DNA of 64,000 nt from Patescibacteria group bacterium (lineage in GTDB: Bacteria > Patescibacteriota > Minisyncoccia > Phycocordibacterales > Phycocordibacteraceae), in NCBI GenBank assembly GCA_038064495.1, contig JBBTSZ010000004.1, forward strand, positions 5,363-69,362. Reading direction: 5' to 3'. The number at the start of each line of letters is the position of its first letter. The first letter of the stretch is position 1. Below are positions 22,897 through 42,259 of this stretch, one piece after another. The position numbers were made by a program, and so were the translations under genes. The notes under the pieces were generated by a model. That model was not told the DNA's origin and ran no database searches. It worked only from the letters and a program-made list of their open reading frames with translations.

Positions 22897-22930
22897 TAGG
22901 CCGGCTCGTGAGAGCCGGCCTATTTCATTT
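22897..22930. terminator. Bidirectional rho-independent terminator between convergent genes
   Basis: taGGCCGGCTC-gtga-GAGCCGGCCta followed by TTTCATTT. Confidence 0.6.
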
Positions 22931-24173
22931 ATATAACCTTTGTTTTAGGGAGGGGAAGTATGAATTTTCCTTTGTAGCCGAGTTTCTTCATGAGAGCAAC
23001 GAGCTCTGTGCCAATGTGCCAGGAGAGTACGAGTGCGTACTCTGGTTGCTCAGCGAATAGTCGGGATTCGTCAACCACTGGAACGTGCGTACCTGGCGTA
23101 TACATACCAATCTTTGGTGAGCCCTTTTTTTCACACGCATAGTCAAGTATGGAATCATCGATATTGCAGAAACCAAGCAGAGTATTTGAGCGAGCTGAGC
23201 TGGTAAGGCCCACAATCCGCTTACCACTTTTCTTCAACGCAAGAAGGGTCGATACCAGGTCATACTTTGCCTGGTATACCTTTTTAGAAAATGCGAGTAA
23301 CTTTTTCTCGTCATTGATACCTGCCGTTGTCTCACGTGCAAGCAATTTCTTTGCACGGGCGCTCATCGGATGCGTACCTTTCTTTGCATAGACACGTATT
23401 GAACCACCTGCCGCAGAGATATGTTCTGCATCAATAACGGAAAGCCCATGTTTGTTGAGTAAGTAGGTAATTGTTTTTAACGAGTAAAAGCGAAGATGTT
23501 CGTGATAGACCGTATCAAACTCAAGTTTTTCGACGATGTCCATAAGATACTGGGACTCAGACACGAAAACACTTTTTGGACCCATGAGACTTTTCACATT
23601 CTGTACCAGAGAGGCAGTATCGTTGATGTGAGCAAACACATTTGTTGCTGTCACCACTTTTGCCGTGCCGTATTTCTTCTTGATTTTCTTCACGGTACTG
23701 CTGCTGAAATATTCCTGATAGGTAGGAATACCATTTTTGTTCGCACTCTTCGCAGCGTCCGTTGGTTCAACGCCAACAACACGTGCACCACGGGCTTTGA
23801 ACGGTTTCAGGAGTGTGCCGTCATTTGAACCAATATCAACAACGAGCCCGCCCGCCGTGTATGCTTTCTCATCTTCAAGTCCTCCGGCAAGTGATTCAAA
23901 GTTTCGAATTAGCATGTTCGTAAGTCCGGTGCGATAGGGGTATTGTCGCGGAAAGACCTTTCTTGGATCCACGATGTAACTAAGTTGTACGAGCCCGCAT
24001 TTCCTACAGCGCACGAGTTCGAGTGGATACGTTTCTTCAAGACCTGAAAGGTCGGCTTTTGTAAGATATTCCTGAACAATAGGTTGATGGCCAAGTGAGA
24101 GAATGGATATAAGGCGTGAACTACTGCAGACTTGGCACGTCGTAACGGGGCCAATATGAAGGGGTTTTTTCAT
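22929..24173 (-). CDS. NDP-hexose C-methyltransferase-like (N-terminal Zn-ribbon + class I SAM MTase; TylCIII family-like)
   Basis: CQVCSS…CRKCGL zinc ribbon; SAM motif GLVVDIGSNDGTLL; 414 aa. Confidence 0.55.
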   Translation of the reverse strand: MKKPLHIGPVTTCQVCSSSRLISILSLGHQPIVQEYLTKADLSGLEETYPLELVRCRKCGLVQLSYIVDPRKVFPRQYPYRTGLTNMLIRNFESLAGGLEDEKAYTAGGLVVDIGSNDGTLLKPFKARGARVVGVEPTDAAKSANKNGIPTYQEYFSSSTVKKIKKKYGTAKVVTATNVFAHINDTASLVQNVKSLMGPKSVFVSESQYLMDIVEKLEFDTVYHEHLRFYSLKTITYLLNKHGLSVIDAEHISAAGGSIRVYAKKGTHPMSARAKKLLARETTAGINDEKKLLAFSKKVYQAKYDLVSTLLALKKSGKRIVGLTSSARSNTLLGFCNIDDSILDYACEKKGSPKIGMYTPGTHVPVVDESRLFAEQPEYALVLSWHIGTELVALMKKLGYKGKFILPLPKTKVI

Positions 24174-27326: not shown

Positions 27327-28349
27327 ATGAAGATTAAGAAAGCGCTGACATTTCGGGCTTCCTCCATAGGAGACTGTCTTATGGGAAAGTATTTGCTTGA
27401 AAATATACATCAGGCCTATCCTGACGCACGTTGCGGAATCGTCGTCGGCAGTCGTGGCTCGATGATACGTGACTTGCTAGCTGACTATCCCTGGATAGAA
27501 GTGATTGAAGCGAATCGGAAGAGTCCGAAAGCTTTGCTTACACTGATACGCACCTACTGGAGAAGTGACCTTGTCACGACCTTGTACACGGGCGGAAAAC
27601 TTAATCTCTCAACCAAACTCGTCGCACGTTTACTTGCGAAGCGAGGAAGTCTCGTAGGATTCACCGACACCTCGCCAGCTAATAGATTCCTGTTTGATAT
27701 CACATTACCAACTCATGGACGGGACGGTGTGCCGCGCCTCCACGAGCTTGCCGTACTTACCGCAATGCATATTCCTGTCGGTATAACGTGGATGAGGTAC
27801 TCCTATATCCCACAGAGGGAACTCTTGCCTCGGTTACAACTTACTGAAAAAACGTATGTTGTTGTAGGACTTTTTTCTGGAGCTGACGCTAGAGGACTTT
27901 CGCCAAAGCGTAAACAAGACCTCATTGAGGCACTTGCGCGTTCATTCCCAAATCATAAATTGGTTTTCACTGGCACTCCTACTGAACGTGCAAAACTTGC
28001 TGAGCTTCACGTGCCACCAACCGCAGTTATTGCTGAAACAACAGTGCAAGAAGCAGCAGCACTTATTGCTGCTTCGGTGGGCATGGTCTCACTTGGCACT
28101 GGAACGTCTCATATCGCGGCCCTCCTGCACGTTCCACTCGTGGTCATGGTTGCTTGTCAGGGTCGCCAATGGGTTGGTCCGGAACAATTCGGTGACGCTC
28201 CCGTACGTGTTTTCTCAAACCCGAGCGCCTGTCCACCAGAAGGACACGACTATTCAGGCTACGCGCCGTGTATCAATACGATAGATATGGATACTCTTAG
28301 TAAGAGTGCACAACAATTATTCCTTAGTACGGAGACACCTTCTGTGTAA
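27327..28349 (+). CDS. Glycosyltransferase family 9 (heptosyltransferase-like)
   Basis: N-terminal LTFRASSIGDCLMGKYLL; C-terminal LGTGTSHIAALLHVPLVVM. Confidence 0.6.
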   Translation: MKIKKALTFRASSIGDCLMGKYLLENIHQAYPDARCGIVVGSRGSMIRDLLADYPWIEVIEANRKSPKALLTLIRTYWRSDLVTTLYTGGKLNLSTKLVARLLAKRGSLVGFTDTSPANRFLFDITLPTHGRDGVPRLHELAVLTAMHIPVGITWMRYSYIPQRELLPRLQLTEKTYVVVGLFSGADARGLSPKRKQDLIEALARSFPNHKLVFTGTPTERAKLAELHVPPTAVIAETTVQEAAALIAASVGMVSLGTGTSHIAALLHVPLVVMVACQGRQWVGPEQFGDAPVRVFSNPSACPPEGHDYSGYAPCINTIDMDTLSKSAQQLFLSTETPSV

Positions 28350-29154
28350 ACGTCGCGTATTTGTTTTCAAAAAAAGTTCCTCTCCCTTTGTAGTACTCCC
28401 AGTCAATCGGCTCGTCTAAAGTGACAACGTGCGGAGTGTTTCCAAACCATGCAGCAAGATTGCTCATACTTGAATTCGTGCCAATGATGACGCTCGTAGT
28501 GCTAAGCAAATGAAAATCAAGGGAAGGCACATCAGTACCTCTCACGGTTGCATATTCTGCAAACGCCCCATTGGGAAATGGTCCATCAGAAACAACGACA
28601 AGTCCAACCTCTCCTTTAGACAATCCTTGGTGTGCAAGATATTCAGAAACAATAGCTTCAACACGCTCAGGCTGTAGAAGAAATTCGCCGTCCGAAAAAT
28701 ACGTAAAGGGACGTTGGCGTACATGTATTCCGATAAGCGTACGACCGGCGAGCGGTTGGAGTATCTCGCCAATTCTCTTAGTCACTCGGTCAGGAGCACG
28801 GAACCGCTCCTTGATTTCTGTTCCGTACTTCTCAAACCCGAGAGGATTTCGAAAAAGCATTCCCAGTAGATACAGATTTCCAGAATCTGTATATTTCTCC
28901 GGAAGCGGAGTCGTTGGTGGTAGATAACGCACGGTGCCGCCCCAGGCAAACATGCTGTCCTTAGGGTGGAGTACTCGCCCTATATACTGCGCATATACCT
29001 CATAGAGTGTGCGAAGGAACGGAATGTTTTGGACAAGAGGTGGTAGTGTTGCTTTCGCACCCAGTTCTAGACTAGCGGCATACACACTCAGATCGTTCCA
29101 GAGTCGGTTTGCATACTCCTTACAATCGTATTTCACTGCAATCAAGTTTTTCAT
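28324..29154 (-). CDS. Putative glycosyltransferase (GT11 alpha-1,2-fucosyltransferase-like motifs)
   Basis: IGIHVRQRPFTYF resembles GT11 HVRRGDY motif; C-terminal NSSMSNLAAWFG resembles STFSWWAAYL; start chosen at MKNLIAV, 1 nt after upstream stop. Confidence 0.35.
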   Translation of the reverse strand: MKNLIAVKYDCKEYANRLWNDLSVYAASLELGAKATLPPLVQNIPFLRTLYEVYAQYIGRVLHPKDSMFAWGGTVRYLPPTTPLPEKYTDSGNLYLLGMLFRNPLGFEKYGTEIKERFRAPDRVTKRIGEILQPLAGRTLIGIHVRQRPFTYFSDGEFLLQPERVEAIVSEYLAHQGLSKGEVGLVVVSDGPFPNGAFAEYATVRGTDVPSLDFHLLSTTSVIIGTNSSMSNLAAWFGNTPHVVTLDEPIDWEYYKGRGTFFENKYATFTQKVSPY

Positions 29155-29155
29155 A

Positions 29156-29857
29156 CTACGAGAGGACGACCCATGGCTTACGAAGTACCGGAAGGTTCCA
29201 TGCTGCATTCGGACGTGCATACCTATGCACAAAGAGTTTCTGGCCGGGCGCTTTGTATTTCATGCAATCAATCAAAAACATGAACGAAGAATCAATCACA
29301 TGCACTTCCTCTGCTCGCTCAATAATTCCCGAATAATCAAAAAGGTTATCGGTTAGTCCAGGACCAACTCGGAACTTCGGAAGGGGAGAGGTGACTAACT
29401 CGTCGTTAATGGGATATCGTCCATCATCATGTACAAACACATACTGTGAGGGAAGAGATAGTTTTGCCTCAAGAATTCGTTCAGCGTCCCTATCCCGCTC
29501 TACATGAAAACTGTCCCATTTCTTTACGTACGGAACGTCGGCTAATTTATAAAATTGGTACTCTGACGGAATACCCGTTTCAAAATCCACATCCCATATT
29601 TTTCGTATTTCATCGTAGTGTCCTGAACCGAAGGTAAGAAAATTCTTTATCCGAAAGAATGTTTTGTCGCGGTGTGTGTGTACGATAACGATTTCAAGAT
29701 TTGGGAGGTCTCGAAACATAAAACGAACGAACGGTTCGAATGTGGGTATGGTAAAAAGACCAACTCGGTCGTGCCGCTTTGCATATTCCCGGACAAGACC
29801 GTTACACATCAAGTGGTCTCCGAGCCGGTTGTGGTGGTCTACTAGCACGCTCGACAT
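29156..29857 (-). CDS. Short GT9-like glycosyltransferase
   Basis: N-terminal RLGDHLMCNGLVRE and C-terminal VIDSSFMFLIDCM resemble GT9 motifs; 233 aa. Confidence 0.4.
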   Translation of the reverse strand: MSSVLVDHHNRLGDHLMCNGLVREYAKRHDRVGLFTIPTFEPFVRFMFRDLPNLEIVIVHTHRDKTFFRIKNFLTFGSGHYDEIRKIWDVDFETGIPSEYQFYKLADVPYVKKWDSFHVERDRDAERILEAKLSLPSQYVFVHDDGRYPINDELVTSPLPKFRVGPGLTDNLFDYSGIIERAEEVHVIDSSFMFLIDCMKYKAPGQKLFVHRYARPNAAWNLPVLRKPWVVLS

Positions 29858-29926: not shown

Positions 29927-31093
29927 ATGAAATACGACATCATTATCTGTGGAGGTGGTATTGCAGGGCTCTGGCTCTTGAATACTCTTACAGCGAAGGG
30001 TCTCAACGTGGTGCTTATAGAAAAGAATACTCTGGGTGGGGTCCAAACACTCGCTTCTCAAGGAATGATTCACGGAGGACAGAAATATCTCTTACAAGGA
30101 CATGCGACTCCCGAGGCGCTCTCAATCGCGAAGATGCCTGAACGCTGGCAGAAGTGTTTTGAGGGAAGTGGCGACATCAATCTATCACGGGTTTCCACGC
30201 TTTCTGAAACACAAGTCATGTGGCCAGCAGGTTCAAAACTTTCTGAAATCGGGCTTGTTGCAGCAGCAAAGCTAGTGAACGCAAAAACGAAGAAACTCTC
30301 TCCAAACGAATATCCAAAGGCTCTTCGTGGTGGCACTGGCCACGGACCAGTATATGAGTTACCTGAGAAAGTCATGGACACCCATTCGCTTGTCTCAGCA
30401 CTCGTCGCACCACATACGGAACGGATTGTGAAAGGTGACATCACTAAACTTGCAGTGGATGGTTCACTTACCGTAAATGGACTCAAGCTTGAGGCTCAAT
30501 TAATCATCTCTACCGCGGGCACTGGTAATGAGGAAGCTTTACGGATGCTCGGTGTATCGGTGGAAGAACATTCGCAGCGTCGACCGCTCCGTCAAATTAT
30601 GATTAAGACGATGGAGTATCCGCTGTATGGTCATGGAGTGGTAAACAACCCGAAGCCTCGGGTAACGATAACGAGCCACCCGCTCCCTGAAGGTGGATAT
30701 GTATGGTATTTGGGGGGAGCCATAGCAGAACAAACCGCCACACTTTCGGATGCCGAAGCGATTACCTATGCGAGAAAGGAAATGCAGGACATATTTCCGG
30801 AAATCGATTGGTTTGGTAAGCATTGGGCCTCATGGCTCGGCGACCGTGCTGAAGCACGCCATCCCGGAGGAGTTATCCAAGATGGTCCAGCAGTTCAAGA
30901 ATACGGAAAGGTTCTCGTAGTGTGGCCGACGAAACTCACCTTCATGCCCGCATTATCAGACAACGTGCATGCTTACGTTGATTCTCACGGACTCACTCCT
31001 TCTTACACTGACGAACCGCCAATCCTCTCATTTCCAGAGGGGGGAGTGTCTCCTTGGGAAAGTGCTCACTGGGCTCATAAAAATCAGGAATAA
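29927..31093 (+). CDS. FAD-dependent oxidoreductase (DAO family)
   Basis: MKYDIIICGGGIAGLWLLNTLTAKGLNVVLIEKN dinucleotide-binding motif. Confidence 0.65.
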   Translation: MKYDIIICGGGIAGLWLLNTLTAKGLNVVLIEKNTLGGVQTLASQGMIHGGQKYLLQGHATPEALSIAKMPERWQKCFEGSGDINLSRVSTLSETQVMWPAGSKLSEIGLVAAAKLVNAKTKKLSPNEYPKALRGGTGHGPVYELPEKVMDTHSLVSALVAPHTERIVKGDITKLAVDGSLTVNGLKLEAQLIISTAGTGNEEALRMLGVSVEEHSQRRPLRQIMIKTMEYPLYGHGVVNNPKPRVTITSHPLPEGGYVWYLGGAIAEQTATLSDAEAITYARKEMQDIFPEIDWFGKHWASWLGDRAEARHPGGVIQDGPAVQEYGKVLVVWPTKLTFMPALSDNVHAYVDSHGLTPSYTDEPPILSFPEGGVSPWESAHWAHKNQE

Positions 31094-31201
31094 TCTGAAA
31101 GGTACGTGCCAGGCTGAAACCGCCATAACAGCAATTCAGTTTGAATAGATACGACAGCCTATTTAGACAAAGCCTTATTTTATCTATATAATTTGCCAAT
31201 T

Positions 31202-32233
31202 ATGAAAGCAGCCGTCCTTGAGACGCTTAATAAACCTCTTGTTGTGGGAGAGGTCACGCTGACTCCTTTGACTCCAGGCCAAGTACTCGTCAAGAATCTG
31301 GTCACGGGTATTTGTGGGGCTCAGCTCGAGGAGATACAGGGCCATAAGGGTAACGCGAAATTCGTTCCACATCTCTTAGGGCATGAGGCATGTGGCATTG
31401 TGGAGGACATCGGTCCTGAGGTACAAAAAGTTAAAAAAGGAGACAAAGTAGTACTGCACTGGAGAAAGGGAGAAGGCATCGAATCAGATTTTCCGAAATA
31501 TATCTACAAGGGAAAAGAAATATCAAGTGGGAAGGTAACAACATTTAGCGAGTACACTATTGTTTCTGAAAATCGGGTAACGCCGGTACCGCACGACACT
31601 CCGAATGATCTTGCTGCGCTACTTGGATGTGCACTTTCTACGGGACTTGGTGTGGTGAGCGGAGCTGCCAAGGTTCAGCCTGGTGAATCCGTCATCATCA
31701 TTGGGGCTGGGGGTGTTGGTTTGAATCTTATACGAGCAGCAGTACGAGCCGGTGCGAATCCCGTCATAGCGGTTGATATCGCAGACAAAGAAACACTGGC
31801 AAAAAATGTGGGCGCCCATTTTTTTATTCATTCAGGTAAAACCGGTCTCGCTGACGGATTAGAGAGCGTGGCAGGTATCAAGAACGTTGACGTGATTATC
31901 TCTACCGTTACTGATAAGAAAACCGCTGAAGAGGCACTTCCACTCCTCGCCCCCTCGGGCAGATATGTGATGGTTGGACAGCCTGTTCCGGGAGAATCTC
32001 TTGAAATTACGAATGCGTTTCATTTCCATGAGGGAGAAGGGAAGGTTCTCATGGGTACCCAGTCCGGAGGTTTTAATCCTACCCGTGACATTCCGAGATA
32101 TCTCAAAATGGCACAAGAGGGTGAGGCTACTATCGACGGAATTATCACGAAGCGCATCAAACTCGACCAAATAAATGAAGCTATTGATGAGATTCGTGCA
32201 GGCAAGGCTGGCAGAATCATGATTGATTTCTAA
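31202..32233 (+). CDS. Zn-dependent medium-chain alcohol/polyol dehydrogenase
   Basis: GHEACGIVEDIG zinc-ligand motif; Rossmann GAGGVGLNLIRAAVRAGA. Confidence 0.7.
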   Translation: MKAAVLETLNKPLVVGEVTLTPLTPGQVLVKNLVTGICGAQLEEIQGHKGNAKFVPHLLGHEACGIVEDIGPEVQKVKKGDKVVLHWRKGEGIESDFPKYIYKGKEISSGKVTTFSEYTIVSENRVTPVPHDTPNDLAALLGCALSTGLGVVSGAAKVQPGESVIIIGAGGVGLNLIRAAVRAGANPVIAVDIADKETLAKNVGAHFFIHSGKTGLADGLESVAGIKNVDVIISTVTDKKTAEEALPLLAPSGRYVMVGQPVPGESLEITNAFHFHEGEGKVLMGTQSGGFNPTRDIPRYLKMAQEGEATIDGIITKRIKLDQINEAIDEIRAGKAGRIMIDF

Positions 32234-32234
32234 T

Positions 32235-33191
32235 ATGAGTACGAACCTAAAGGCATACAAACGAATGCTCTACCTACGGCTCGCTGAACAGGAGCTCGTT
32301 AAGATGTATCTGGATAAGAAGATTTTCAGCATGGTGCATTTTTATGTGGGCCAGGAAGCGGTTGCAGTCGGCGTGTGTGAAGCGCTTACTCCAGAAGATA
32401 AAGTGCTCGGCAACCACCGTTCGCATGGACACTATCTTGCAAAGGGAGGAAACTTCAGAAAGATGGTGAGTGAACTTCTGGGAAGAGCTGATGGCGTTGC
32501 TCACGGCAAAGGGGGTTCCATGCATATGATAGATAAGTCCGTGAATTTCGTCGGCTCTACACCACTCCTCGGGAGCGTTGCGCCTATTGCAGCAGGCGTT
32601 GCCTTCGAGCAGAAATACAACGGTCGCGATGACGTTACCGTCGCATTCTATGGGGACGGTGCATCGGAAGAGGGAGTTGTTTACGAAACGTACAATCTCG
32701 CTGCGCTGTATGAGGTACCACTCCTGCTTGTCGTTGAGAATAATTTCTTTTCCATAAACTCACGTGCACGCGAACGCAGGCCTCAAGGATATGATCTAGA
32801 GAAGATTGTTACAGGATTCGGGATTCCCTTTATGCGTGCTGACGGCAATGACTATGAAGATGTGAATACCAAAGCTGCGAAACTTTTAGAAATGGTACGC
32901 CGTGAGAAGCGTCCGGCAGTGCTTGAATGCCTCACGTTCCGTCACATGGCGCACTCTACGCCTCTGATGGAGGAGAAATATCGTGAGCATGATACGGCAG
33001 AGGTTCGTGAAGCAAAGGACCCGCTTACCAAGATGAAAAAAGATATCCTCTCAAGCGGAGTATCTCAAGCGGAACTTATTTCAATGGAAGAAGGACTGCG
33101 TGAAGAAATCGCGAACGATATTGCAGAAGCAGAGAAAGCCGCATTTCCCACGCGAGAAGAGATGTTTACCGATATGTACTACACCGAATAA
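32235..33191 (+). CDS. TPP-dependent 2-oxoacid dehydrogenase E1 alpha-like subunit
   Basis: TPP-binding YGDGASEEGVVYETYNLAALYEVPLLLVVENN. Confidence 0.7.
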   Translation: MSTNLKAYKRMLYLRLAEQELVKMYLDKKIFSMVHFYVGQEAVAVGVCEALTPEDKVLGNHRSHGHYLAKGGNFRKMVSELLGRADGVAHGKGGSMHMIDKSVNFVGSTPLLGSVAPIAAGVAFEQKYNGRDDVTVAFYGDGASEEGVVYETYNLAALYEVPLLLVVENNFFSINSRARERRPQGYDLEKIVTGFGIPFMRADGNDYEDVNTKAAKLLEMVRREKRPAVLECLTFRHMAHSTPLMEEKYREHDTAEVREAKDPLTKMKKDILSSGVSQAELISMEEGLREEIANDIAEAEKAAFPTREEMFTDMYYTE

Positions 33192-33193
33192 GT

Positions 33194-34222
33194 ATGAGCG
33201 ACCGAATCCTCAAATACACAGAAGCTCTCAGGGAAGCAACCGCGCAGATGCTCGCGGAAAATGATCAGGTGTTTGTCATAGGTCTTGGTGTTCCGCAGGG
33301 CGCAGCAGGCACAACTATGGGCCTAAAAGATGAGTACCCCACGCGCGTGTTGGATACACCTATTTCAGAAGGTGCACTTACCGGTCTTGCGGTGGGTGCG
33401 GCCATCTCCGGCCTACACCCGGTGGTCTACCATGAGCGTGTAGAGTTTGCGCTTGTGGCGGCAGATCAGATATTCACACAGGCGGCAAAGTGGAACTACA
33501 TGTTCGGTGGCGACAACCCTGTACCATTAACACTACGCGTCGCAGTAGGGCGCAAGTGGGGCAATGGTCCTCAGCACTCGCAGGCACTCTACTCTCTGTT
33601 CGGTGCAGTACGAGGTTTGAAGGTGGTTATTGCGTCCACTCCATACATGGCGAAAGGACTCCTCATATCTGCAATACGCGATAAGAATCCTGTCATACTG
33701 CTGGAGAATCTCTGGCTGTATCAGGTAAAGGAGGAAGTTCCTGAAAAAATGTACGCACTTCCTCTTGATAAGGCGAGAGTTGCACAAGAGGGAACCGATG
33801 TCACCGTCGTTACGTACGGGGACGGATTCGTGGACTCTCTTTCTGCACTTACACTCCTTCCGAAAGACATCTCCGTAGAACTCATAGATCTCGTGTCCAT
33901 TAATCCAGTGGATTATGACACTATTGAACAGTCCGTACGAAAGACCGGTCGGCTCATAACGGTAGATACGACCAACGCCGCCTTCAGCGTGGGTGCTGAA
34001 ATCATTGCCAAGATGACCGAGCGAGCTATTCCGCTCTCGAGTACGCCGATTGCGATTGCAACTCCTGATGTGCCAGTACCCACCTCGTCCGCCCTCCTGG
34101 AATTCTATTACCCTACCAAGGTAGACATCGCGAATGCAGTGCTCAAAATGCTTAACAAGGAAGCCCTTGAAACCAAACTCTCCTTTGAAGAGTTACATTT
34201 AGCACCAAGCCACACCCTGTAA
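33194..34222 (+). CDS. TPP-dependent 2-oxoacid dehydrogenase E1 beta-like subunit (transketolase-like)
   Basis: 342 aa; typical E1beta N-terminal pyrimidine-binding and C-terminal domains; immediately follows E1alpha. Confidence 0.7.
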   Translation: MSDRILKYTEALREATAQMLAENDQVFVIGLGVPQGAAGTTMGLKDEYPTRVLDTPISEGALTGLAVGAAISGLHPVVYHERVEFALVAADQIFTQAAKWNYMFGGDNPVPLTLRVAVGRKWGNGPQHSQALYSLFGAVRGLKVVIASTPYMAKGLLISAIRDKNPVILLENLWLYQVKEEVPEKMYALPLDKARVAQEGTDVTVVTYGDGFVDSLSALTLLPKDISVELIDLVSINPVDYDTIEQSVRKTGRLITVDTTNAAFSVGAEIIAKMTERAIPLSSTPIAIATPDVPVPTSSALLEFYYPTKVDIANAVLKMLNKEALETKLSFEELHLAPSHTL

Positions 34223-34973: not shown

Positions 34974-35474
34974 ATGGGAAAGATAGCCACACTTGAAGAA
35001 GTATTGAAAGCAACACAAAAGGCACGTAAGCAGGGAAAGAAAATAGTTGCTACCAATGGCTGCTTCGATATCCTTCACGTAGGACATGTGCGCAATCTTC
35101 AAGCCGCCAAGAAACTCGGCGACATTCTTATTGTAGGTGTAAACTCTGATGCATCGGTACGACAGAATAAAGGTTCACTTCGGCCCATCGTTCCAGCTCG
35201 TGAGCGGGCAGAGGTCATCGCCGCTCTTGAGGCAGTTGACTACGCTTTCATTTTTTCAGGAAAGACTCCACTTGGTTGGATAGCTAAGATTAAACCGGAC
35301 TTTCACGTAAAGGGTGGGGGAGCGGACGTAAAGGCCCACCCAGATTTTCCTAAGCACGAGGAAGTGGTGAGGAAGGAAGGAGGAAAGCTGATTCTCTTGA
35401 AACATCACCACGGACGTTCAACATCCACGATTATAGAGAAAATAGTAGAAGCTGAAAAAAGGAAGAAAACCTAA
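34974..35474 (+). CDS. D-beta-D-heptose 1-phosphate adenylyltransferase (HldE/RfaE domain II-like cytidylyltransferase fold)
   Basis: GCFDILHVGHVRNLQAAKKLGDILIVGVNSDASV closely matches RfaE domain II. Confidence 0.75.
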   Translation: MGKIATLEEVLKATQKARKQGKKIVATNGCFDILHVGHVRNLQAAKKLGDILIVGVNSDASVRQNKGSLRPIVPARERAEVIAALEAVDYAFIFSGKTPLGWIAKIKPDFHVKGGGADVKAHPDFPKHEEVVRKEGGKLILLKHHHGRSTSTIIEKIVEAEKRKKT

Positions 35475-35560: not shown

Positions 35561-36073
35561 ATGGATCATGAAATGGTGGGTGAGGTCGTCTTTTCGGGAC
35601 ACTTTCTTACACTGACCATCGAAAAGCGCGATACCCTTACTTTTGAGCGTTGTTATCAACGCAATGGTGTCTCGGTCATTGTGGTGCCTGAACCAGGCAA
35701 AATTCGACTCATCACTGAAAAGGATTGGGAAGACGGTCTTTCCAAGACCAAGGTGGTTAGCGCCTACCGTGAGGACGGCGAAGACCCTCTTGCCTGTGCC
35801 AAGCGCGAACTGCAAGAAGAAATGGGCTTCACCGCGGAAAATTGGGAACTGTACCATGTCTCCAAGAGCGACGGCGCTATCATCAAGGACCAGCACTACT
35901 ACGTTGCAACCGGTCTCACCGAGGTTGGTGCGAAGCCAGACGAAGATGAAACTATCTTCTACTGGCGGGATTTCTCATTTGAGGAAATCCGCGAGAAGTC
36001 GCTTTCGCTCGGCTTCGGAACGCACGAAAATGCGTTCGCCCTTCTCAGGTTTGTTACTGAAGTACGGGAGTGA
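35561..36073 (+). CDS. NUDIX hydrolase (nucleotide-sugar/ADP-ribose pyrophosphatase-like)
   Basis: Nudix box GEDPLACAKRELQEEMGF. Confidence 0.75.
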   Translation: MDHEMVGEVVFSGHFLTLTIEKRDTLTFERCYQRNGVSVIVVPEPGKIRLITEKDWEDGLSKTKVVSAYREDGEDPLACAKRELQEEMGFTAENWELYHVSKSDGAIIKDQHYYVATGLTEVGAKPDEDETIFYWRDFSFEEIREKSLSLGFGTHENAFALLRFVTEVRE

Positions 36074-36087: not shown

Positions 36088-36122
36088 AACGTCGTTCGAG
36101 CAATTGCTCGAACGACGTTTTT
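36088..36122. terminator. Bidirectional rho-independent terminator (perfect 32-nt palindrome + T-run)
   Basis: AACGTCGTTCGAGCAATTGCTCGAACGACGTT then TTTT; between convergent NUDIX and cupin genes. Confidence 0.7.
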
Positions 36123-36585: not shown

Positions 36586-38487
36586 ATGAAGGAGAAAGGT
36601 CTCATTTTCGTCTACGAAACCGAACAGATACCGGCGGTCCTTGTGTATCTCGAGGAACATCCAGACTCCATGGTCATCAGCCTCACCCTTTGGGTTGAAC
36701 GGGAACTACGAGCAAACGGGGTGACGAGTCTCCCTCTTACTGACTTTGTATTGCCAACTGAAAATAATCACTCACTATTGGAACAGGCTGACACGCTCGC
36801 ACGAGAGTGGTACCAAACTCCTGAGATGAGTTTCTTCTCGTATGCCGGGATGCATCTCGGGGAAGTTCTAGAGCCGATGCTCTCTGAATATTTCCAAAGA
36901 ATTCTGTACTATCTTCGAGCAGTGCATGCTGTTCTTGCAGTACATGCCGACAGAACATTGCTCGTTACACCGCACTCTTGTAAGGAGGCGCGGTCCACAA
37001 GTGGTCCTCTCGCGCCGTTTGAAATACGTATTGTGGCAAATGTTATTTCTACTATCGGCAAGCAGCGAAGCCTCTCAGTTCAGCTACTTGGTAGGGAACC
37101 AGTAACTCCTACCGCACATATCTACCCTCGTTCACTACTTCGCTCGTATTCACTTGCCTGCATCAACGCATGCACCAAATTCCTAACTCCCCAAAAGCCT
37201 CTTAGGATATATGCAAGTGAATATTGGTGGCACGTCGCTCCCTTCATTCAGACTATGGATGATGCAGAAGTGGTATTTATGGAACGAAAAGAACTCCGGA
37301 ATATTCCATGGACTGAAATACGGAAACATCGTATCAGGTTTGCACACCCCGTTGATGCCACCTCACGGAAGATGAGACGAGACACACGCGAGATAGTGAA
37401 GCAGTTTACGCGTGAGTGGGAAGCAAAACGCGAGAGTGTACGCTCGATGGAGGGCTTCACCTACGAGGGAGACAACTGGTGGAGCTTAGTTGAAGCGGCA
37501 TATGAATATCTCGTCACCGTATATGCAGAACGTATTGTTACTGACCACAAAGCCTTTGAAGCATTATTTAAACGTGAGCATATCAATCGGGTACTGCTAC
37601 GCGCCAGTGTTGGGGGAACACAACACCATTTTTTTGTCGCTGCTCAGGTAGCACGCATGCTCCATATTCCCTCAATTGAGTTACAGCACGCAACTGAAGT
37701 CGTGGATGCACAATCGGTCCACTCTCGGCTTGCTGCGGATTATCTGGCTTCATATGGAGAAGCAACGAAAGAGAATCTAACTCGTAATCACGGGTATGAC
37801 CCAAACCGGATACGAGCGATAGGGTCACCTCGCTTTGATTCGTATACTCAACGTGATTCCTTTACTGAAGCTAAGAAAAGTGAATTTCTTACAACTCTTG
37901 GTTTGAATCCAGAAAAGCCAACACTCCTGTACGCCGTACCATCAGAAATTGTTGATTTGTATATTGCTAACTTTGATTCGTACCAAATCGCTCACTACTT
38001 TACAGAACTCAGGGCGGTGCAGGAACATATTCCGGAGTTGCAGATACTTGCGAAATTCAGAGGCGGCGCGCTGACTGAACGCTATCGGGATTTCCTTACT
38101 GAACTATTTCCTGATGGGGGAATAGTGCTTTCTGATTCACGAGACATCGTGTCGCTTATGCGGGCTTCAACACTTGTCCTCGCCGGTAACTCAACACTCT
38201 TTCTTGAGGCACTTCAGGCAGATTGCCCAACGCTGCTCTATCCGCTTCAGCCCCATGACGTTGTTACGAAGCAGACCTATCAGGCCGTACTTCCTGCACC
38301 AGATAACGCTGATACACTTAAAAACCTTGTCGAACGACTTGTCTTCAATCAGGCCGAACGGGAATTACTGCTTACAGCACAGCAGGCGTTCCTCCACACC
38401 AAGTATGCATTTGACGGCAAGGCGAGTGAGCGTATAGCTGCATTGCTTCGCGAACCACTCGTTAGCTATCCAAACGACATAGCGTAA
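36586..38487 (+). CDS. Hypothetical 633 aa protein; candidate Maf/DUF115-like or capsule-synthesis (KpsC/S-like) nonulosonate transferase
   Basis: No strong motif; size and position directly upstream of PseB-like gene; C-terminal half has GT-B-like alternating pattern. Assignment is inference only. Confidence 0.25.
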   Translation: MKEKGLIFVYETEQIPAVLVYLEEHPDSMVISLTLWVERELRANGVTSLPLTDFVLPTENNHSLLEQADTLAREWYQTPEMSFFSYAGMHLGEVLEPMLSEYFQRILYYLRAVHAVLAVHADRTLLVTPHSCKEARSTSGPLAPFEIRIVANVISTIGKQRSLSVQLLGREPVTPTAHIYPRSLLRSYSLACINACTKFLTPQKPLRIYASEYWWHVAPFIQTMDDAEVVFMERKELRNIPWTEIRKHRIRFAHPVDATSRKMRRDTREIVKQFTREWEAKRESVRSMEGFTYEGDNWWSLVEAAYEYLVTVYAERIVTDHKAFEALFKREHINRVLLRASVGGTQHHFFVAAQVARMLHIPSIELQHATEVVDAQSVHSRLAADYLASYGEATKENLTRNHGYDPNRIRAIGSPRFDSYTQRDSFTEAKKSEFLTTLGLNPEKPTLLYAVPSEIVDLYIANFDSYQIAHYFTELRAVQEHIPELQILAKFRGGALTERYRDFLTELFPDGGIVLSDSRDIVSLMRASTLVLAGNSTLFLEALQADCPTLLYPLQPHDVVTKQTYQAVLPAPDNADTLKNLVERLVFNQAERELLLTAQQAFLHTKYAFDGKASERIAALLREPLVSYPNDIA

Positions 38488-38518
38488 CTTTTTGCACACG
38501 AGCGCGGTATACACTACT

Positions 38519-39520
38519 ATGCAACCTATGATTACGGCTTTTCTCAAAGATAAGGTGGTTCTGGTGACCGGAGGTACCGGTACGTTCGGTAACGCCTTTG
38601 TGAAGAAGGTTCTTGCTGAGAACCAGATTAAGAAACTGATTATCTTTTCACGTGACGAATTGAAACAAAGTCAGATGCAGGCTTCTATAGAAGACCCGCA
38701 CAAAAAACTCCGGTTCTTCCTCGGAGATATCCGTGATTTGCCGCGCCTTAATCAAGCATTTCATGGAGTAGATTATGTTGTTCATGCCGCTGCCTTGAAA
38801 CGAGTTGATGCACTTGAATACAATCCGTCTGAAGCCATCAAAACAAATATCCTTGGAGGTCAGAATGTTATTGATGCAGCGCTCGCGAACAACGTGACTA
38901 AGTGCCTCCTTATTTCTACTGATAAAGCAGTTCAGCCGATTAACCTCTATGGTGCAACAAAACTTGCTGCCGAAAAACTCTTTGTTGCAGCGAACGCATA
39001 CCGGAGTCCTTCACAGAACACCGCATTCGGCGTTGTGCGGTATGGAAACGTCGTCGGTAGCCGTGGGAGTTTTATAGAAATGATTAAGACTCAGCGAGCG
39101 ACGGGTGTCATCACCCTTACCCACGAAAAGATGACGAGGTTCTGGATAACCATAGACAAGGTGATGGACGTGATTATTGAGAGTCTCGACCGGCTCCAAG
39201 GAGGAGAGACTTTTGTGCCGAAGATGGGGAATATGCCGGTCGTTGATGTGATTAAAATGCTTACTCCTGAATGTGAGATTAAGACAATTGGTATGCGCCC
39301 AGGTGAGAAACTCCACGAAGTGCTCGTTACCGAATATGAAGCACCGCGTACCAAAGATGGAGGAACAACCTTTATTGTGAAGCCCGAACAAGACTTCGTT
39401 GCCTCCTATTGCGGATGGCTCGACACACTTCCCGAAGCAGAAAAAGACTTTATTTTTGCAAGTGACAATCCTACATTCTTGCTCACGCAACCAGAAGCTG
39501 AAAAGATTCTCAAAATCTAA
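38519..39520 (+). CDS. pseB: UDP-N-acetylglucosamine 4,6-dehydratase (inverting), PseB/FlaA1 family
   Basis: VLVTGGTGTFG; IIFSRDELKQ; YGATKLAAEKLFVAAN; VVRYGNVVGSRGS; RFWIT; MRPGEKLHEV. All collinear with H. pylori FlaA1/PseB. Confidence 0.8.
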   Translation: MQPMITAFLKDKVVLVTGGTGTFGNAFVKKVLAENQIKKLIIFSRDELKQSQMQASIEDPHKKLRFFLGDIRDLPRLNQAFHGVDYVVHAAALKRVDALEYNPSEAIKTNILGGQNVIDAALANNVTKCLLISTDKAVQPINLYGATKLAAEKLFVAANAYRSPSQNTAFGVVRYGNVVGSRGSFIEMIKTQRATGVITLTHEKMTRFWITIDKVMDVIIESLDRLQGGETFVPKMGNMPVVDVIKMLTPECEIKTIGMRPGEKLHEVLVTEYEAPRTKDGGTTFIVKPEQDFVASYCGWLDTLPEAEKDFIFASDNPTFLLTQPEAEKILKI

Positions 39521-40224
39521 CTACCAGTATAGGTAATGTCTTCGTCATCAAGTCGTCGGTAGGGCTTTTCGTTTTGTATTTCCTCAAGGGCGTGCGCCAT
39601 CATTCCCGGCATGCGACCGAATGCGAAGAGCGGTTTGCCGAGATGTGGGTCAAGTCCGAGCTCAAGCATAAGTGCTGCTATGGCCCCATCAATATTGAGC
39701 GGGAGGTGCTTTCCGGTCGCGACCGCAAGTTCCTTTTCAATTAAACGTGCTTGTTCAACATGTACCCCTGCGATTCCGAGCTCTGTCGCAGCCTGAAGGA
39801 GTTGCTGCGCACGCGGGTCAGCATCCTTATAGACTTTGTGTCCGTAGCCCGGAAAGCGTGAACGCTCTGCAAGTACTTTCTCCACTGAGGTCTTCGCCTG
39901 AAAGTACTGTGCCGCCGCTTCAATAGCACCACCATGGTGGTCTCCTGTTGCGAGAATGCCTGCCGCAATGGCCACATGGAGCGGGTTACCCACTGAGGCC
40001 GATACGCGAGCACTAAATGCCGAAGGAGCCTGGACCCCATGCTCACTCATGGAAACGAGCATCATATCGAAGAGTTTTTGTTCGGTATCTGAAGGAAGTC
40101 TTCCAGAAAGAAGGAGGAAGGAAACCTCTGAAAAGGAATGGTCTCGGACCAGTTCTGAAAGGGAGATGCCCCGTACTACAAGTTGGCCCTCTTTTGTCGT
40201 GCTAATAGCGGTGTTCCATTTCAT
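39517..40224 (-). CDS. Citrate-synthase-family small protein (citryl-CoA lyase-like)
   Basis: TGDHHGGAIEA (citrate synthase GPLHGGANEA) and GYGHKVYKDADPRA (GFGHRVYKxxDPRA). Confidence 0.6.
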   Translation of the reverse strand: MKWNTAISTTKEGQLVVRGISLSELVRDHSFSEVSFLLLSGRLPSDTEQKLFDMMLVSMSEHGVQAPSAFSARVSASVGNPLHVAIAAGILATGDHHGGAIEAAAQYFQAKTSVEKVLAERSRFPGYGHKVYKDADPRAQQLLQAATELGIAGVHVEQARLIEKELAVATGKHLPLNIDGAIAALMLELGLDPHLGKPLFAFGRMPGMMAHALEEIQNEKPYRRLDDEDITYTGS

Positions 40225-40227
40225 ACG

Positions 40228-41124
40228 TTATGTAAGTATACGCTTAAGGGCAGGAGAGATTTCTTCAACCGTGGAAACGATGGTGACGCCAGCAGCAGTG
40301 AGTGCTTGCACTTTAGAGGCATAGCTTCCACGGCCTTTCGCTACGATGGTTCCCGCGTGACCAAGTACTGTGCCGTCAGTGAGTGTGTCTGCAAACTCTC
40401 CAGCGATGAGGGCAACAACAGGTTTGGAGAAAGAATTCTTTTTAATATAGTCAGCAGCTTGCTCCTCATAGGTACCGCCCACCTCTCCGAAGAGAACAAC
40501 GGCTGTCGTTTCAGCATCCTCAGCAAACAAGGTAAGGAGGTCAGTAAAATCGGAACCGATAAGAATGTCAGCACCAATACCTACAGCCGTTGACTGACCC
40601 AGTCCGGCGTTCGTCAGCGCGAGTGCAATCTCACTCGTCATTCCCCCTGATTTTGAAAGCACCCCAACAGAACCAGGTGAATAGACCTTCACCATCTCCC
40701 CAGAACCAATACTTCCAATCTTTGCTTTACCGGGAGAAATGATGCCAACCGACGAAGGGCCGACGACTCGTATGCCACACCTCCTCGCTTCAGCAAGCAT
40801 CCGGGCGGTGTCCTGTGTAGGAATATGTTCGGTCAGAATTACCACAAGCGGAATAGAGGCTCGTATAGATTCAAGTGCAGCGTCCATTGCAAATCGTGCT
40901 GGAACGACAACGAGGGACGTATTTATCTCGGGATGAGCAGTGAGTGCCTCAGCAACCGTGTTGTAGACCGGCACACCTTCCACCATCTCACCTCCTTTGC
41001 CGGGTGTGACGCCCGCAAGCACGGGTGTGCCGTATGCAAGAGACTCTCGACAGGTGCGTGCACCTTCATTCCCGGTGACGCCTTGTATCAAAAGTCGTGT
41101 CTCCTTGTCGATGAGGATGCTCAT
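40228..41124 (-). CDS. Succinyl-CoA synthetase alpha-like CoA-binding subunit (ATP-citrate lyase / citryl-CoA synthetase small subunit-like)
   Basis: LIQGVTGNEGARTCRESLAYGTPVLAGVTPGKGG; phosphohistidine loop LGHAGTIV. Confidence 0.7.
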   Translation of the reverse strand: MSILIDKETRLLIQGVTGNEGARTCRESLAYGTPVLAGVTPGKGGEMVEGVPVYNTVAEALTAHPEINTSLVVVPARFAMDAALESIRASIPLVVILTEHIPTQDTARMLAEARRCGIRVVGPSSVGIISPGKAKIGSIGSGEMVKVYSPGSVGVLSKSGGMTSEIALALTNAGLGQSTAVGIGADILIGSDFTDLLTLFAEDAETTAVVLFGEVGGTYEEQAADYIKKNSFSKPVVALIAGEFADTLTDGTVLGHAGTIVAKGRGSYASKVQALTAAGVTIVSTVEEISPALKRILT

Positions 41125-42179
41125 ACCGTTTTGTACGCAAGCGTCACCATAGTTGTTGCGGTGTCCTTCATGCTCGTCGTTGCGTCAAACAAATGAATAT
41201 CAAATCCTTCCTCTTGGGCAGCATCCTGGAGCATACGAAATGCTTCTTCACGCCGTGGGCCATCCCGGCGTATGACAATAGGGAAGGTTGGCTTCACTTC
41301 ACGCAATGCCTCAAGAAAGCCGGACATGGTTTCATAAATATCCGTAAAGTTCGCCGCGGCACCAACGACCCAGCACCCACGGAGTCCGGGATGCGATAGA
41401 ACTCGCAGGGTTAGTTCCTTAACGACCGACGCGGGAGGATTCCCCGAGTATTCCGTATAGTTTGCCGGTTTGCCTCCTGCACGAATGAGCGTGTCCATGT
41501 TTAAAAGGGAAGCGCCTCCACCAGACGCGAGAATGGCAATGTCCCCCGTGAGGGTCAGGATACGTTTCTCGCCGGGAGCAACTCTTTCGTCATCAGTTTG
41601 AATCTTAGCGTCGCCCGCAACGAGGCCACCGGCTGTTTCAAAAAGCGGATTGATTTCCGCCACAAGCGCGTATTCGTCAATAAACAATTTCCAGAGCTTC
41701 TGAATAACGTCTGAGAATTCTGAATGAACCTCTTTAGGAATATCAGCCGCGGTGTACGCCATGCTGAGGAGTTTGTCAGTAAGGCCTTCGAGAATGGAGA
41801 TGGGTGTGGTGTGTGCATCACTAATTCCCGTTCCTCCAGTTCGTGAGAGTGATAGAACTGGTGCTCGCGTATCTGTGTCGTACGAGAAACTCACATAATA
41901 TTCGTTCGTTGCCTGCACTCGTTCCTCTACAAGGATGTGTTCAACAGGCTCACCGGAAATCTCCTTCGAAAAGAGCGTCGCGAGCCCTTCCTCGGCCTCA
42001 GCCTGGTTTTCTGCAAAGATAATGCCCCCAGCCTTCATGCGGTCGCCAGAGCGCACCTGAGCCTTCAGTACGACCGGGAAGCTGGAAAGGGTGGTAGGAG
42101 CCTCAAGAAGGCTCCCCTCCGGTACTGGGATGCCATAGGAGGTGAAGAGTGCCTTTCCTTCAAATTCTCGGAGCCTCAT
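41121..42179 (-). CDS. Succinyl-CoA synthetase beta-like ATP-grasp subunit (ATP-citrate lyase / citryl-CoA synthetase large subunit-like)
   Basis: REFEGKALFTSYGIPVP, EINPL, ASGGGASLLNMDTLIRAGGKPANYTEYSG collinear with SucC; start chosen at MRLREFEG. Confidence 0.65.
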   Translation of the reverse strand: MRLREFEGKALFTSYGIPVPEGSLLEAPTTLSSFPVVLKAQVRSGDRMKAGGIIFAENQAEAEEGLATLFSKEISGEPVEHILVEERVQATNEYYVSFSYDTDTRAPVLSLSRTGGTGISDAHTTPISILEGLTDKLLSMAYTAADIPKEVHSEFSDVIQKLWKLFIDEYALVAEINPLFETAGGLVAGDAKIQTDDERVAPGEKRILTLTGDIAILASGGGASLLNMDTLIRAGGKPANYTEYSGNPPASVVKELTLRVLSHPGLRGCWVVGAAANFTDIYETMSGFLEALREVKPTFPIVIRRDGPRREEAFRMLQDAAQEEGFDIHLFDATTSMKDTATTMVTLAYKTV

Positions 42180-42259
42180 AGTTAGGAAAACTATACCCCA
42201 GGCTGATACGTTGCGACACAAAACTTTTACCGCTCCTCGTGGTTCTATATACTGTATAT

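Follow-up and report, generated by a model that had tools for sequence, protein, structure and literature searches.

Thiamine diphosphate (ThDP)-dependent enzymes of the E1alpha/E1beta type that add a pyruvate-derived two-carbon (C2) branch to keto sugars are known as alphaKADH2 (PMC12247030, a 2025 review). Their function is supported by feeding experiments and knock-outs for aldgamycin and by in-vitro assays for KbDH-alpha/beta of kibdelomycin (PMC12247030), and about 120 alphaKADH2 clusters have been predicted (Krug et al. 2024, in PMC12247030). The branch ketone can be reduced, as in paulomycin, trioxacarcin and avilamycin E, transaminated, as in kibdelomycin, or methylated or oxidised (PMC12247030). 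In paulomycin biosynthesis, Pau11/Pau12 are the homologues of AviB1/AviB2, and the aldo-keto reductase (AKR) Pau7 is the branch ketoreductase (PMC4753412). For miharamycin and amipurimycin, split-gene transketolases have been proposed to transfer a hydroxyacetyl group once the keto sugar has been produced by an oxidoreductase (PMC12247030). Here we describe a 64 kb stretch of contig JBBTSZ010000004.1 from a Patescibacteria group bacterium (the window), in which an E1alpha/E1beta pair lies in a surface-glycan locus next to a Zn-dependent alcohol dehydrogenase (ADH) and a flavin adenine dinucleotide (FAD)-dependent oxidoreductase. The analysis covered one contig of this genome, which was assembled from a groundwater metagenome; genes identical to those of the window are present in assemblies from the Hainich aquifer.

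The E1 pair is best read, with a probability of roughly 0.55, as an E2-independent ThDP carboligase of the alphaKADH2 type, AlmDI, KbDH and AviB1 being compared by description only. Like AlmDI/DII, KbDH, AviB1/B2 and Pau11/12, it is encoded by adjacent E1alpha and E1beta genes without E2 or E3 in a sugar-biosynthesis cluster. The expected chemistry is likewise C2 transfer from pyruvate to a sugar carbonyl, and in the known systems a neighbouring reductase or aminotransferase often processes the branch ketone (PMC12247030, PMC4753412). The family, the motifs, the gene context and this literature are what suggest pyruvate C2 chemistry for the pair. The locus differs from the alphaKADH2 systems in that it belongs to a cell-surface glycan of Patescibacteria and not to an antibiotic cluster, in that activation appears ADP-heptose-like instead of proceeding through thymidine or cytidine diphosphate (TDP/CDP)-deoxyhexoses, with no 4,6-dehydratase linked, and in its partner enzyme. 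The latter is a Zn-ADH of the medium-chain dehydrogenase/reductase (MDR) type that is translationally coupled or even fused to E1alpha, whereas the reductase Pau7 belongs to the AKRs and fusions with an ADH have not been reported. A further parallel is YerE, which serves the lipopolysaccharide branches of yersiniose, erwiniose and caryophyllose: there, as in our proposal, a surface-glycan sugar receives a C-acyl branch, which is subsequently converted by reduction to hydroxyalkyl. YerE is a single-chain ThDP flavoenzyme of the decarboxylase superfamily, resembling acetolactate synthase, and is not homologous to E1alpha/beta.

Four open reading frames (ORFs) on the + strand were confirmed head to tail at 29927-34222, encoding the FAD oxidoreductase, the Zn-ADH, E1alpha and E1beta. 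A sequence-only reading of the window had described these genes, quoting the E1alpha motif YGDGASEEG...VVENN, and both genes and motif are real. It had also proposed that the pair is of an E2-less, sugar-modifying type serving a glycan, and this is supported on comparative grounds by the glycan context, the lack of E2 and E3, the ADH fusions, the shared motifs and the alphaKADH2 literature, each of which is taken up below.

The pair resembles PdhAB and AcoAB in fold, in ThDP and Mg binding and in its catalytic residues. The best NCBIfam and PDB matches of both subunits are E1 subunits of pyruvate dehydrogenase (PDH), with human and Geobacillus PDH E1 as the nearest solved structures, and some homologues are named acetoin:DCPIP oxidoreductase by the Joint Genome Institute (JGI). 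Intact catalytic residues include GDGASEEG...VVENN in the alpha subunit, the ThDP-activating Glu in the beta subunit (PISE), and the active-site His of both (AHS in alpha, QHSQ in beta); GDG...NN, the activating Glu and the active-site His occur in every E1 enzyme and have no diagnostic value. These features would suit an ordinary pyruvate or acetoin dehydrogenase E1 whose E2 and E3 are encoded elsewhere in the genome. We consider this quite improbable, since both subunits scored below the curated cut-offs (E1alpha 289.3 bits versus 393.85 for the PDH equivalog TIGR03182; E1beta 261.1 bits versus 321 for NF006667), since the 'GHSMSDP' loop and the 'NQG' motif of PDH are replaced, since the gene context consists entirely of glycan genes, and since E2 and E3 were consistently missing. 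Among the genes called at contig positions 8171-68587, none belonged to the lipoyl, 2-oxoacid_dh or Pyr_redox_dim families of Pfam; two remaining ORFs of the window gave no Pfam match. Searches by BLAST with 25 E2 and 25 E3 queries returned no match in the six-frame translation of the window and none in the 930 kb of 81 related loci, whereas, among the 57 ordinary PDH control loci of at least 15 kb, 48 had an E2 gene no more than 10 kb away. The sequence-only reading had noted that no lipoyl-E2 or E3 is nearby, which thus holds for the window by Pfam and by BLAST and extends to the related loci. Taken together, these data support the view that the pair is not a component of a PDH or acetoin-dehydrogenase complex.

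The related set was assembled from 78 metagenome loci and from contigs recovered by exact-protein look-ups, and gene neighbourhoods were counted in the 48 loci of at least 8 kb. At least 80 ordinary PDH-type E1alpha loci from reference genomes, retrieved by a profile search with the alignment of the clade from the Candidate Phyla Radiation (CPR), served as control and outgroup; among the matches listed in that search, ordinary PDH-type E1alpha were 33-38% identical to the CPR clade. The proteobacterial E2-less pairs described below came to light through these matches. In a neighbour-joining (NJ) tree, 74 E1alpha sequences formed one clade without outsiders. Identity was at least 47% inside this clade and about 40% at most to anything outside.

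The altered active-site motifs link the clade to other E1 pairs that work without E2. Where E2-linked E1alpha have YRDHGHMLAxGM, GDGAxNQG, GGHGIVGAQ and YR(Y)(R/K)GHSMSDP, the clade of the window has HRSHGHYLAKGG, GDGA(S/F)EEG, GSTPILGSV and YRHMAHS.P, the window protein itself reading HRSHGHYLAKGG, GDGASEEG and RHMAHSTP. The first of these (HRSHGHYLAKGG, 'YLAKGG') and GDGAxEEG recur in scattered E2-less E1alpha and are absent from E2-linked PDH. In E1beta, the E2-less types carry H.R(V/M)(E/D)F (H.RVEF in the window) and G.GPQHSQ, compared to EFMTFNF in PDH. The motifs were shared by pairs from Pelagibacter (L009), a gammaproteobacterium (L010), Lentisphaerales (L018), Terriglobia (L027), an alphaproteobacterium (L029), a plasmid of Azospirillum ramasamyi (L170, NZ_CP029835.1 42731-44744) and a plasmid of Streptomyces griseofuscus (L167). 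All of them except the last stand in the arrangement short-chain dehydrogenase/reductase (SDR) - E1alpha - E1beta - DegT aminotransferase - SDR - methyltransferase - GT2. By their gene content these are nucleotide-sugar modification loci, their E1 pairs are likely to be surface-glycan counterparts of the antibiotic sugar-branching enzymes, and by analogy the proteobacterial loci would fit the transaminated pattern of known branched sugars. The pairs of Pelagibacter and Azospirillum share YLAKGG, GDGAxEEG and H.R..F with the window, lack E2 and are surrounded by glycan genes. They are 35-42% identical to it, however, and fall outside its clade; their partners, SDRs and a sugar aminotransferase, follow a nucleotide-hexose logic, compared to a Zn-ADH and an HldA-like kinase here.

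In the Streptomyces griseofuscus plasmid (pSGRIFU1, 137096-139142) the E2-less pair, with YLAKGG and GDGASEEG, stands beside a condensation-domain protein, an acyl carrier protein and ketosynthases, that is, in a PKS/NRPS setting. Judged by these neighbours, this type of enzyme would here serve secondary metabolism and not sugar chemistry. The other of the best Streptomyces plasmid matches (L168) is an ordinary PDH with E2.

The most constant partner of the E1 pair is the Zn-ADH, encoded within 3.5 kb of E1alpha in 41 of the 48 loci, to which five loci with fused genes, counted as E1alpha, have to be added; a count of genes directly upstream of E1alpha gave the ADH in 42 of the 48. The order ADH > E1alpha > E1beta > kinase never varied. 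The fused ORFs encode ADH-E1alpha proteins of 660-669 residues (L089:8924-10918, L094:3187-5193, L098:615-2624, L099:8930-10930 and L127:2-1984), 62-91% identical to each other, in which a linker of 5-12 residues joins the C-terminus of ADH to the N-terminus of E1alpha and in which Pfam detected ADH_N, ADH_zinc_N and E1_dh in a single chain. In the window, a single nucleotide separates the ADH stop codon TAA (32231-32233) from the E1alpha ATG (32235). The fusions and this spacing are strong comparative evidence that ADH and E1 act on the same intermediate. The catalytic zinc ligands C41, H64 and C146 were invariant in 59 ADH sequences, as was Asp195, with which the second Rossmann strand ends. 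Since this acidic residue is invariant, the enzyme would be of the NAD rather than the NADP type. The structural-zinc cysteines are missing together with the structural-zinc lobe.

A Zn-ADH 70% identical to that of the window is annotated in the genome of the isolate Cyanobium sp. HWJ4-Hawea (WP_255002937.1, P0284). This identity suggests that the module has been exchanged horizontally between CPR bacteria and picocyanobacteria. Should the whole module be present in Cyanobium, a culturable test organism would be available.

The NAD-type ADH, whose nearest classical relatives are class I/III alcohol dehydrogenases, also invites a fermentative explanation, in which the E1 pair acts as a pyruvate decarboxylase releasing acetaldehyde and the ADH reduces this to ethanol, as an E2-free means of redox balancing. 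The fusions would suit acetaldehyde channelling, and CPR bacteria are, to our knowledge, fermenters without PDH complexes. Such a module is nevertheless improbable, because the cassette was always found among glycan genes, sharing an invariable operon with the HldA-like kinase and adjoining GT9-like transferases, and in none of about 60 loci beside glycolytic or fermentation genes. In addition, one related locus has a transketolase-type pair in the place of the E1 pair (see below), and the motifs group the pair with E1 pairs of sugar loci.

Within 3.5 kb of E1alpha, the 48 loci encoded E1beta (45 loci), a PfkB-family kinase (35), GT9-like transferases (34) and a nucleotidyltransferase (9, rising to 13 within 10 kb), and all loci were rich in glycosyltransferases and FkbM-type methyltransferases. 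The kinase of the window reached 113 bits on rfaE_dom_I (cut-off 345). A profile of 29 kinase orthologues matched the heptose-7-phosphate kinase HldA (4e84) best, with E 2e-15, followed by the next PfkB protein at 9e-9; the match covers the HldE-specific N-terminal motif, but the cassette kinases have lost about 70 residues that HldA possesses. The nucleotidyltransferase scored 168.6 bits on TIGR02199 (rfaE_dom_II), with a cut-off of 181.5. Neither GmhA nor GmhB was found in the window. GmhA-like SIS genes occurred in 6 of the 48 loci, HldD-like epimerases in some, KdsD-like arabinose-5-phosphate isomerases in two (L132 and L141), and phosphatase-like genes as EEP in 9 of the 48 and as Inositol_P in L171. 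Genes for Nudix hydrolases were present in 5 of the 48 and in L171, those for the small cupin in 9 of the 48 and in L006, L171 and L172. Cassette kinases measured 240-260 residues; GmhA-like loci often have full-length PfkB proteins of 306-360 residues (L008, L103, L104, L146, L154, L163).

Compared with the ADP-heptose pathway (GmhA, HldE or HldA plus HldC, GmhB, HldD and GT9 transferases), the locus thus has a kinase, a nucleotidyltransferase and transferases of the same families. It differs in the shortened kinase and in the lack of GmhA and GmhB, and the classical pathway uses neither a ThDP enzyme nor a Zn-ADH. By gene content, the context is ADP-heptose-like and not that of a TDP/UDP-4-keto-6-deoxyhexose pathway. 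Among freshwater CPR bacteria, the ADP-heptose pathway has been described in Paceibacteria only (PMC9166423). Since no 4,6-dehydratase is tightly linked, the acceptor of the E1 pair is probably a heptose-pathway intermediate. The sequence-only reading had proposed transfer of a C2 unit from pyruvate to a keto sugar; on comparative grounds this is still the best-supported chemistry, but the hexose-type acceptor it assumed does not agree with the heptose-like context.

The transferase side of the module includes a small protein of 233 residues, u233, whose gene is no more than 3.5 kb from E1alpha in 26 of the 48 loci and, in 20 of the 48, immediately 5' of ADH, where it is the most frequent gene; in the window it is transcribed divergently from the FAD/ADH side. 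Its family has 281 members, all unnamed or from Patescibacteria. No Pfam family, PF01075 included, was matched at E 0.01 or better, and u233 falls short of the length of GT9 enzymes by about 100 residues. For the AlphaFold2 model (pLDDT 93.7), the best solved structures in Foldseek were all GT9 heptosyltransferases, namely WaaF (1psw), a Veillonella GT9 protein (3tov), WaaC (2h1h) and TibC (4rap), with probability 1.00 and TM(query) of 0.52-0.59, and on this model u233 would be a minimal GT9-like glycosyltransferase of a Patescibacteria-only family. Three loci (L109, L110 and L115) encode u233 joined to a GT2 domain. Homologues of a second conserved protein, u276, were found in 10 related loci and usually adjoin u233.

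The tight linkage of the kinase, the most closely associated downstream gene, can also be explained if the E1 pair builds a sugar skeleton before activation. The enzyme would then work like 1-deoxyxylulose 5-phosphate (DXP) synthase or transketolase on a C5 or C6 aldose or its phosphate, with pyruvate, hydroxypyruvate or a ketose as donor, to give a 1-deoxy-ketose phosphate or a product like sedoheptulose-7-phosphate; the ADH would adjust the redox state, and kinase, phosphatase and nucleotidyltransferase would follow. A parallel is the heptose-like octose pathway of lincomycin, which is fed by a transaldolase, and Yokota and Sasajima are said to have shown in the 1980s that E1 of PDH and acetoin dehydrogenase make 1-deoxy-ketoses from pyruvate and aldoses. 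The phosphatase-like genes found after the kinase imply a bisphosphate intermediate, GmhA is missing from the window and from 42 of the 48 loci, KdsD-like isomerases occur in the two loci mentioned, and the transketolase-family pair can stand in for the E1 pair in one locus, all of which would fit. Nonetheless we think this explanation unlikely. Isomerisation to an aldose is impossible for a 1-deoxy-2-ketose, which therefore offers no substrate to an anomeric kinase, a sugar-1-phosphate nucleotidyltransferase or a GT9 enzyme. This explanation also leaves no clear role for the universally linked and sometimes fused NAD-dependent ADH, and the motifs are those common to E1 pairs of nucleotide-sugar-type loci.

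E1 enzymes being 2-oxo-acid decarboxylases, the substrate could in principle be a sugar acid. A 2-keto-3-deoxy sugar acid of the Kdo, KDN or nonulosonate kind would be decarboxylated to a 2-deoxy-aldose, and this would then either be reduced, with the ADH as catalyst, or undergo phosphorylation and activation. The window does contain a NeuB-type nonulosonate cluster, and aldehydes and primary alcohols are the preferred substrates of the ADH family. Since NeuB and KdsA are not conserved near the cassette (NeuB in 0 of 81 loci), and since we know of no precedent for such a reaction by an enzyme of this kind, we regard it as highly improbable. Phosphonate biosynthesis, with a phosphonopyruvate decarboxylase and an ADH, was likewise considered and rejected, as no phosphoenolpyruvate mutase was found in any annotated locus.

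For the carboligase that we favour, the following sequence of steps can be proposed. The E1 pair would decarboxylate pyruvate to hydroxyethyl-ThDP and transfer the C2 unit onto a sugar carbonyl, giving an alpha-hydroxy methyl ketone, that is, either a C-acetyl branch or a two-carbon extension. The NAD-dependent Zn-ADH would be the obligate redox partner, either oxidising a sugar hydroxyl to the acceptor carbonyl or reducing the acetyl group to a 1-hydroxyethyl group. The sugar would pass through an ADP-heptose-like route, with the HldA-like kinase, a phosphatase where present and the HldE-II-like nucleotidyltransferase presumably using the adenosine nucleotide, and GT9-like transferases including u233 would install it in the cell-surface glycan. 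The sequences show the gene content, the gene order and its conservation, the fusions, the lack of E2 and E3, the intact catalytic residues and the family relationships; that pyruvate is the donor, that carboligation takes place, which sugar accepts the C2 unit, which way the ADH works and that the nucleotide is ADP are inferred. In favour of a carbonyl maker, the ADH would be of the NAD type and is the only universal partner; an acceptor carbonyl is indispensable, reduction of the branch is optional in known systems, and the fusion would help to pull an unfavourable oxidation by channelling. In favour of an acetyl reducer, the E1 product is always an acetoin-like alpha-hydroxy methyl ketone, a typical MDR substrate. 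Because a specialised short kinase and genes resembling those of phosphatases are tightly linked to the module, the reaction may take place on a heptose phosphate before nucleotide activation. By analogy with the antibiotic systems, the CPR cassette would fit the pattern of an oxidoreductase followed by a ThDP enzyme, here on a heptose-type pathway.

More tentatively, and as a possibility that we hold with clearly less confidence than the enzyme type itself, CPR bacteria of the Paceibacteria type, together with some other freshwater bacteria through gene transfer, might make a novel higher-carbon sugar. This would be a C-acetyl or 1-hydroxyethyl heptose or a nonose, produced on phospho- or ADP-heptose by an oxidise-then-ligate machine in which the Zn-ADH and the E1 pair are held together physically, at times as a fusion protein, and in which the short HldA-like kinase and the minimal GT9-like transferases handle the product.

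Several observations weigh against the carboligase as proposed. The NJ tree does not place the CPR clade beside the proteobacterial sugar-type pairs. Neither an NDP-hexose 4,6-dehydratase nor another obvious generator of a keto sugar is tightly linked (extended SDRs within 3.5 kb in 5 of the 48 loci). The candidate carbonyl makers are the universal Zn-ADH, the FAD enzyme in this lineage, and, within 3.5 kb, classical SDRs in 6 of the 48 loci and extended SDRs. The kinase is linked more tightly than the nucleotidyltransferase, so that a free or phosphorylated sugar would fit as a substrate at least as well as a nucleotide sugar. Both subunits keep the His residues that PDH E1 uses for lipoyl acetylation. 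The relatives to which the ADH is closest, the class I/III enzymes, act on primary alcohols (with scores far below the cut-offs) and are not acetoin or polyol reductases. Finally, the metagenome loci were picked with peptide patterns taken from this window, which biases the set toward its relatives.

The FAD-dependent oxidoreductase upstream of the ADH matched PA4991 of Pseudomonas aeruginosa (PDB 5ez7) with E 1.4e-72. PA4991 is an orphan GR2 flavoenzyme whose active site resembles the glycerol-3-phosphate dehydrogenase site and retains an Arg that binds phosphate or carboxylate; it was inactive on glycerol-3-phosphate and on 41 amines (PMC4741190). In the window the homologue starts a run of four genes that the sequence-only reading had treated as one set, with the FAD enzyme as a core partner. 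It was found in none of the 81 related metagenome loci, and the conserved partner is the Zn-ADH instead. A core function of the FAD enzyme was therefore rejected; look-ups based on the ADH led us to retain an accessory role. The FAD enzyme recurs beside the ADH in at least seven loci whose ADHs are most similar to that of the window. In the two nearest relatives (L171, L172) the FAD gene is near the ADH gene with a methyltransferase in between, and a widespread freshwater group (L173-L177) has the order GT2 - DAO - ADH - E1alpha - E1beta - Bac_transf, with identities to the window of 52% for DAO, 52% for E1alpha and 73% for ADH. The adjacency of FAD enzyme and ADH was also seen in two contigs of JGI sample 3300059473. 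On one of these, of 30 kb, the DAO-ADH pair (ADH 72% identical) lies in a locus with GmhA, kinase, nucleotidyltransferase and GT9 genes, and according to the gene list, a split transketolase-family pair (241 residues, PF00456; 159 residues, PF02779) occupies the position expected for the E1 pair. This is an apparent non-orthologous replacement by another C2-transferring ThDP enzyme. As in the proposed miharamycin and amipurimycin pathways, an oxidoreductase would precede ThDP-dependent C2 transfer, and here a split pair follows DAO-ADH in a related locus. The window differs from these in having E1-type subunits, for which the donor would be pyruvate, delivering an acetyl group, and not hydroxypyruvate or a ketose, delivering a hydroxyacetyl group.

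From this distribution, the FAD enzyme appears as a recurrent, lineage-restricted accessory of the module. It would add a further oxidation in this lineage, plausibly introducing a keto group next to a phosphate. Because the PA4991 site resembles that of glycerol-3-phosphate dehydrogenase, one may speculate that the enzyme oxidises the CHOH beside the CH2-O-phosphate of heptose 7-phosphate. A heptose-type glycan locus would be the first functional context for the orphan PA4991 family. PA4991 itself is reportedly needed for growth of P. aeruginosa in cystic fibrosis sputum.

The sequence-only reading had further placed a TylCIII-type C-methyltransferase in the same pathway. Its gene lies on the opposite strand and 6 kb away, and a counterpart occurs within 10 kb in only 5 of the 48 loci; it was therefore rejected as part of the module and is regarded as a neighbour in the same glycan island. 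That reading is thus partly supported: the enzyme type and the glycan role were right, while the hexose acceptor, the FAD enzyme as a core component and the link to the C-methyltransferase are wrong or unproven.

CPR bacteria (Patescibacteria) are abundant, uncultured and mostly episymbiotic, and a role in host attachment is assumed for their surface glycans. We know of nothing reported on the chemistry of these glycans. The cassette occurs in dozens of related uncultured genomes and predicts a specific unusual sugar. If the proposal is true, ThDP-dependent branching of a sugar would for the first time be found on a heptose pathway, and it would be a lineage-wide trait of CPR surface glycans. 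The range of alphaKADH2 enzymes would be widened from actinomycete antibiotics to primary cell-envelope glycans, and the natural ADH-E1 fusions would be potential biocatalysts for tertiary alcohols. In the literature searched, we found no lineage-wide cassette of an ADH-coupled, E2-less E1 carboligase on a heptose-type pathway, and nothing relevant on acetoin dehydrogenase in CPR bacteria or in O-antigen clusters, or on E1 enzymes in connection with branched-chain sugars.

The features of the locus are collected in Table 1. The intergenic gaps downstream of E1alpha are 2 nt to E1beta, 4 nt from E1beta to the kinase and 3 nt from the kinase to the nucleotidyltransferase. Since a promoter-like site ends at 31192, just 5' of ADH, and a terminator-like hairpin follows the Nudix gene, the core operon probably begins with ADH and ends with Nudix, and the FAD gene, just upstream on that strand, may form a unit of its own. 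Promoter-like sites in the region are no more numerous than expected by chance, and only the position of this one is suggestive.

Table 1 Features of the E1alpha/E1beta locus and further genes of the window that are discussed in the text
Feature	Position	Strand	Evidence and remarks
GT9 gene	15947-16960		PF01075; second GT9 of the window besides 27381-28349
TylCIII-type C-methyltransferase	22929-24173	-	PF08421 and PF08484
GT9-family heptosyltransferase-like glycosyltransferase	27381-28349	+	Pfam PF01075, weak; 322-residue product
u276, conserved protein, function not assigned	28324-29154	-	no Pfam match; homologues in related loci
u233, minimal GT9-like glycosyltransferase (predicted)	29156-29857	-	fold match; no Pfam match
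FAD-dependent oxidoreductase, PA4991 homologue	29927-31093	+	Pfam DAO, E 9e-19
Promoter-like site TAGACA-17-TATAAT, directly 5' of ADH	31164-31192	+	11/12 matches, best in the region
Zn alcohol dehydrogenase (MDR), NAD-type	31202-32233	+	Pfam ADH_N and ADH_zinc_N
ThDP-dependent E1alpha	32235-33191	+	E1_dh (PF00676), E 9e-64
ThDP-dependent E1beta	33194-34222	+	Transket_pyr (PF02779) and Transketolase_C (PF02780)
Short HldA/HldE-domain-I-like sugar kinase, 247 residues	34227-34970	+	Pfam PfkB
HldE-domain-II-like sugar-1-phosphate nucleotidyl (adenylyl) transferase, cytidylyltransferase superfamily	34974-35474	+	TIGR02199
Nudix hydrolase, weakly NudE-like (ADP-compound hydrolase)	35561-36073	+	Pfam NUDIX; NudE 35 bits, under cut-off
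Terminator-like hairpin, 14-bp stem, 8 GC pairs, T-run	36088-36119	+	3' of Nudix, operon end
Small cupin, 124 residues	36123-36497	-	Pfam Cupin_2

The wider window forms one long glycan island with transferases of the GT4, GT2, GT9 and GT47 families, methyltransferases, a UDP-glucose dehydrogenase, an ABC transporter and a Wzy-like gene. Behind the cupin, a protein of 633 residues (36586-38487) gave borderline matches to CDP-glycerol glycerophosphotransferase (22.0 bits, with a cut-off of 22.1) and to the BFO_1060 glycosyltransferase domain; it is kept after the cupin in L006, L171 and L172. It is followed at 38492-51006 by a complete-looking nonulosonic acid cluster of the pseudaminic or legionaminic type, comprising a PseB-like dehydratase (398 bits, with a cut-off of 408), a GNAT protein, an amidase, an SDR, NeuB, a GT2 transferase, a GFO oxidoreductase, an aminotransferase and a CMP-sugar synthetase. 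Inside this cluster, at 39517-42293 on the minus strand, lie a citryl-CoA lyase (NF004869, 244 bits, above cut-off) and two ligase subunits like those of citryl- or succinyl-CoA synthetase (ATP-grasp_2 with Citrate_bind; CoA_binding with Ligase_CoA). Their position between the PseB-like gene and the GNAT, amidase and NeuB genes is an odd one in a CPR genome, and they may supply acyl-CoA for N-acylation of the nonulosonic sugar. Upstream of the glycan island, at 2891-10125, two large proteins of 607 and 796 residues with weak CARDB matches are followed by a TraG/VirD4-like coupling ATPase (570 residues; TrwB_AAD_bind).

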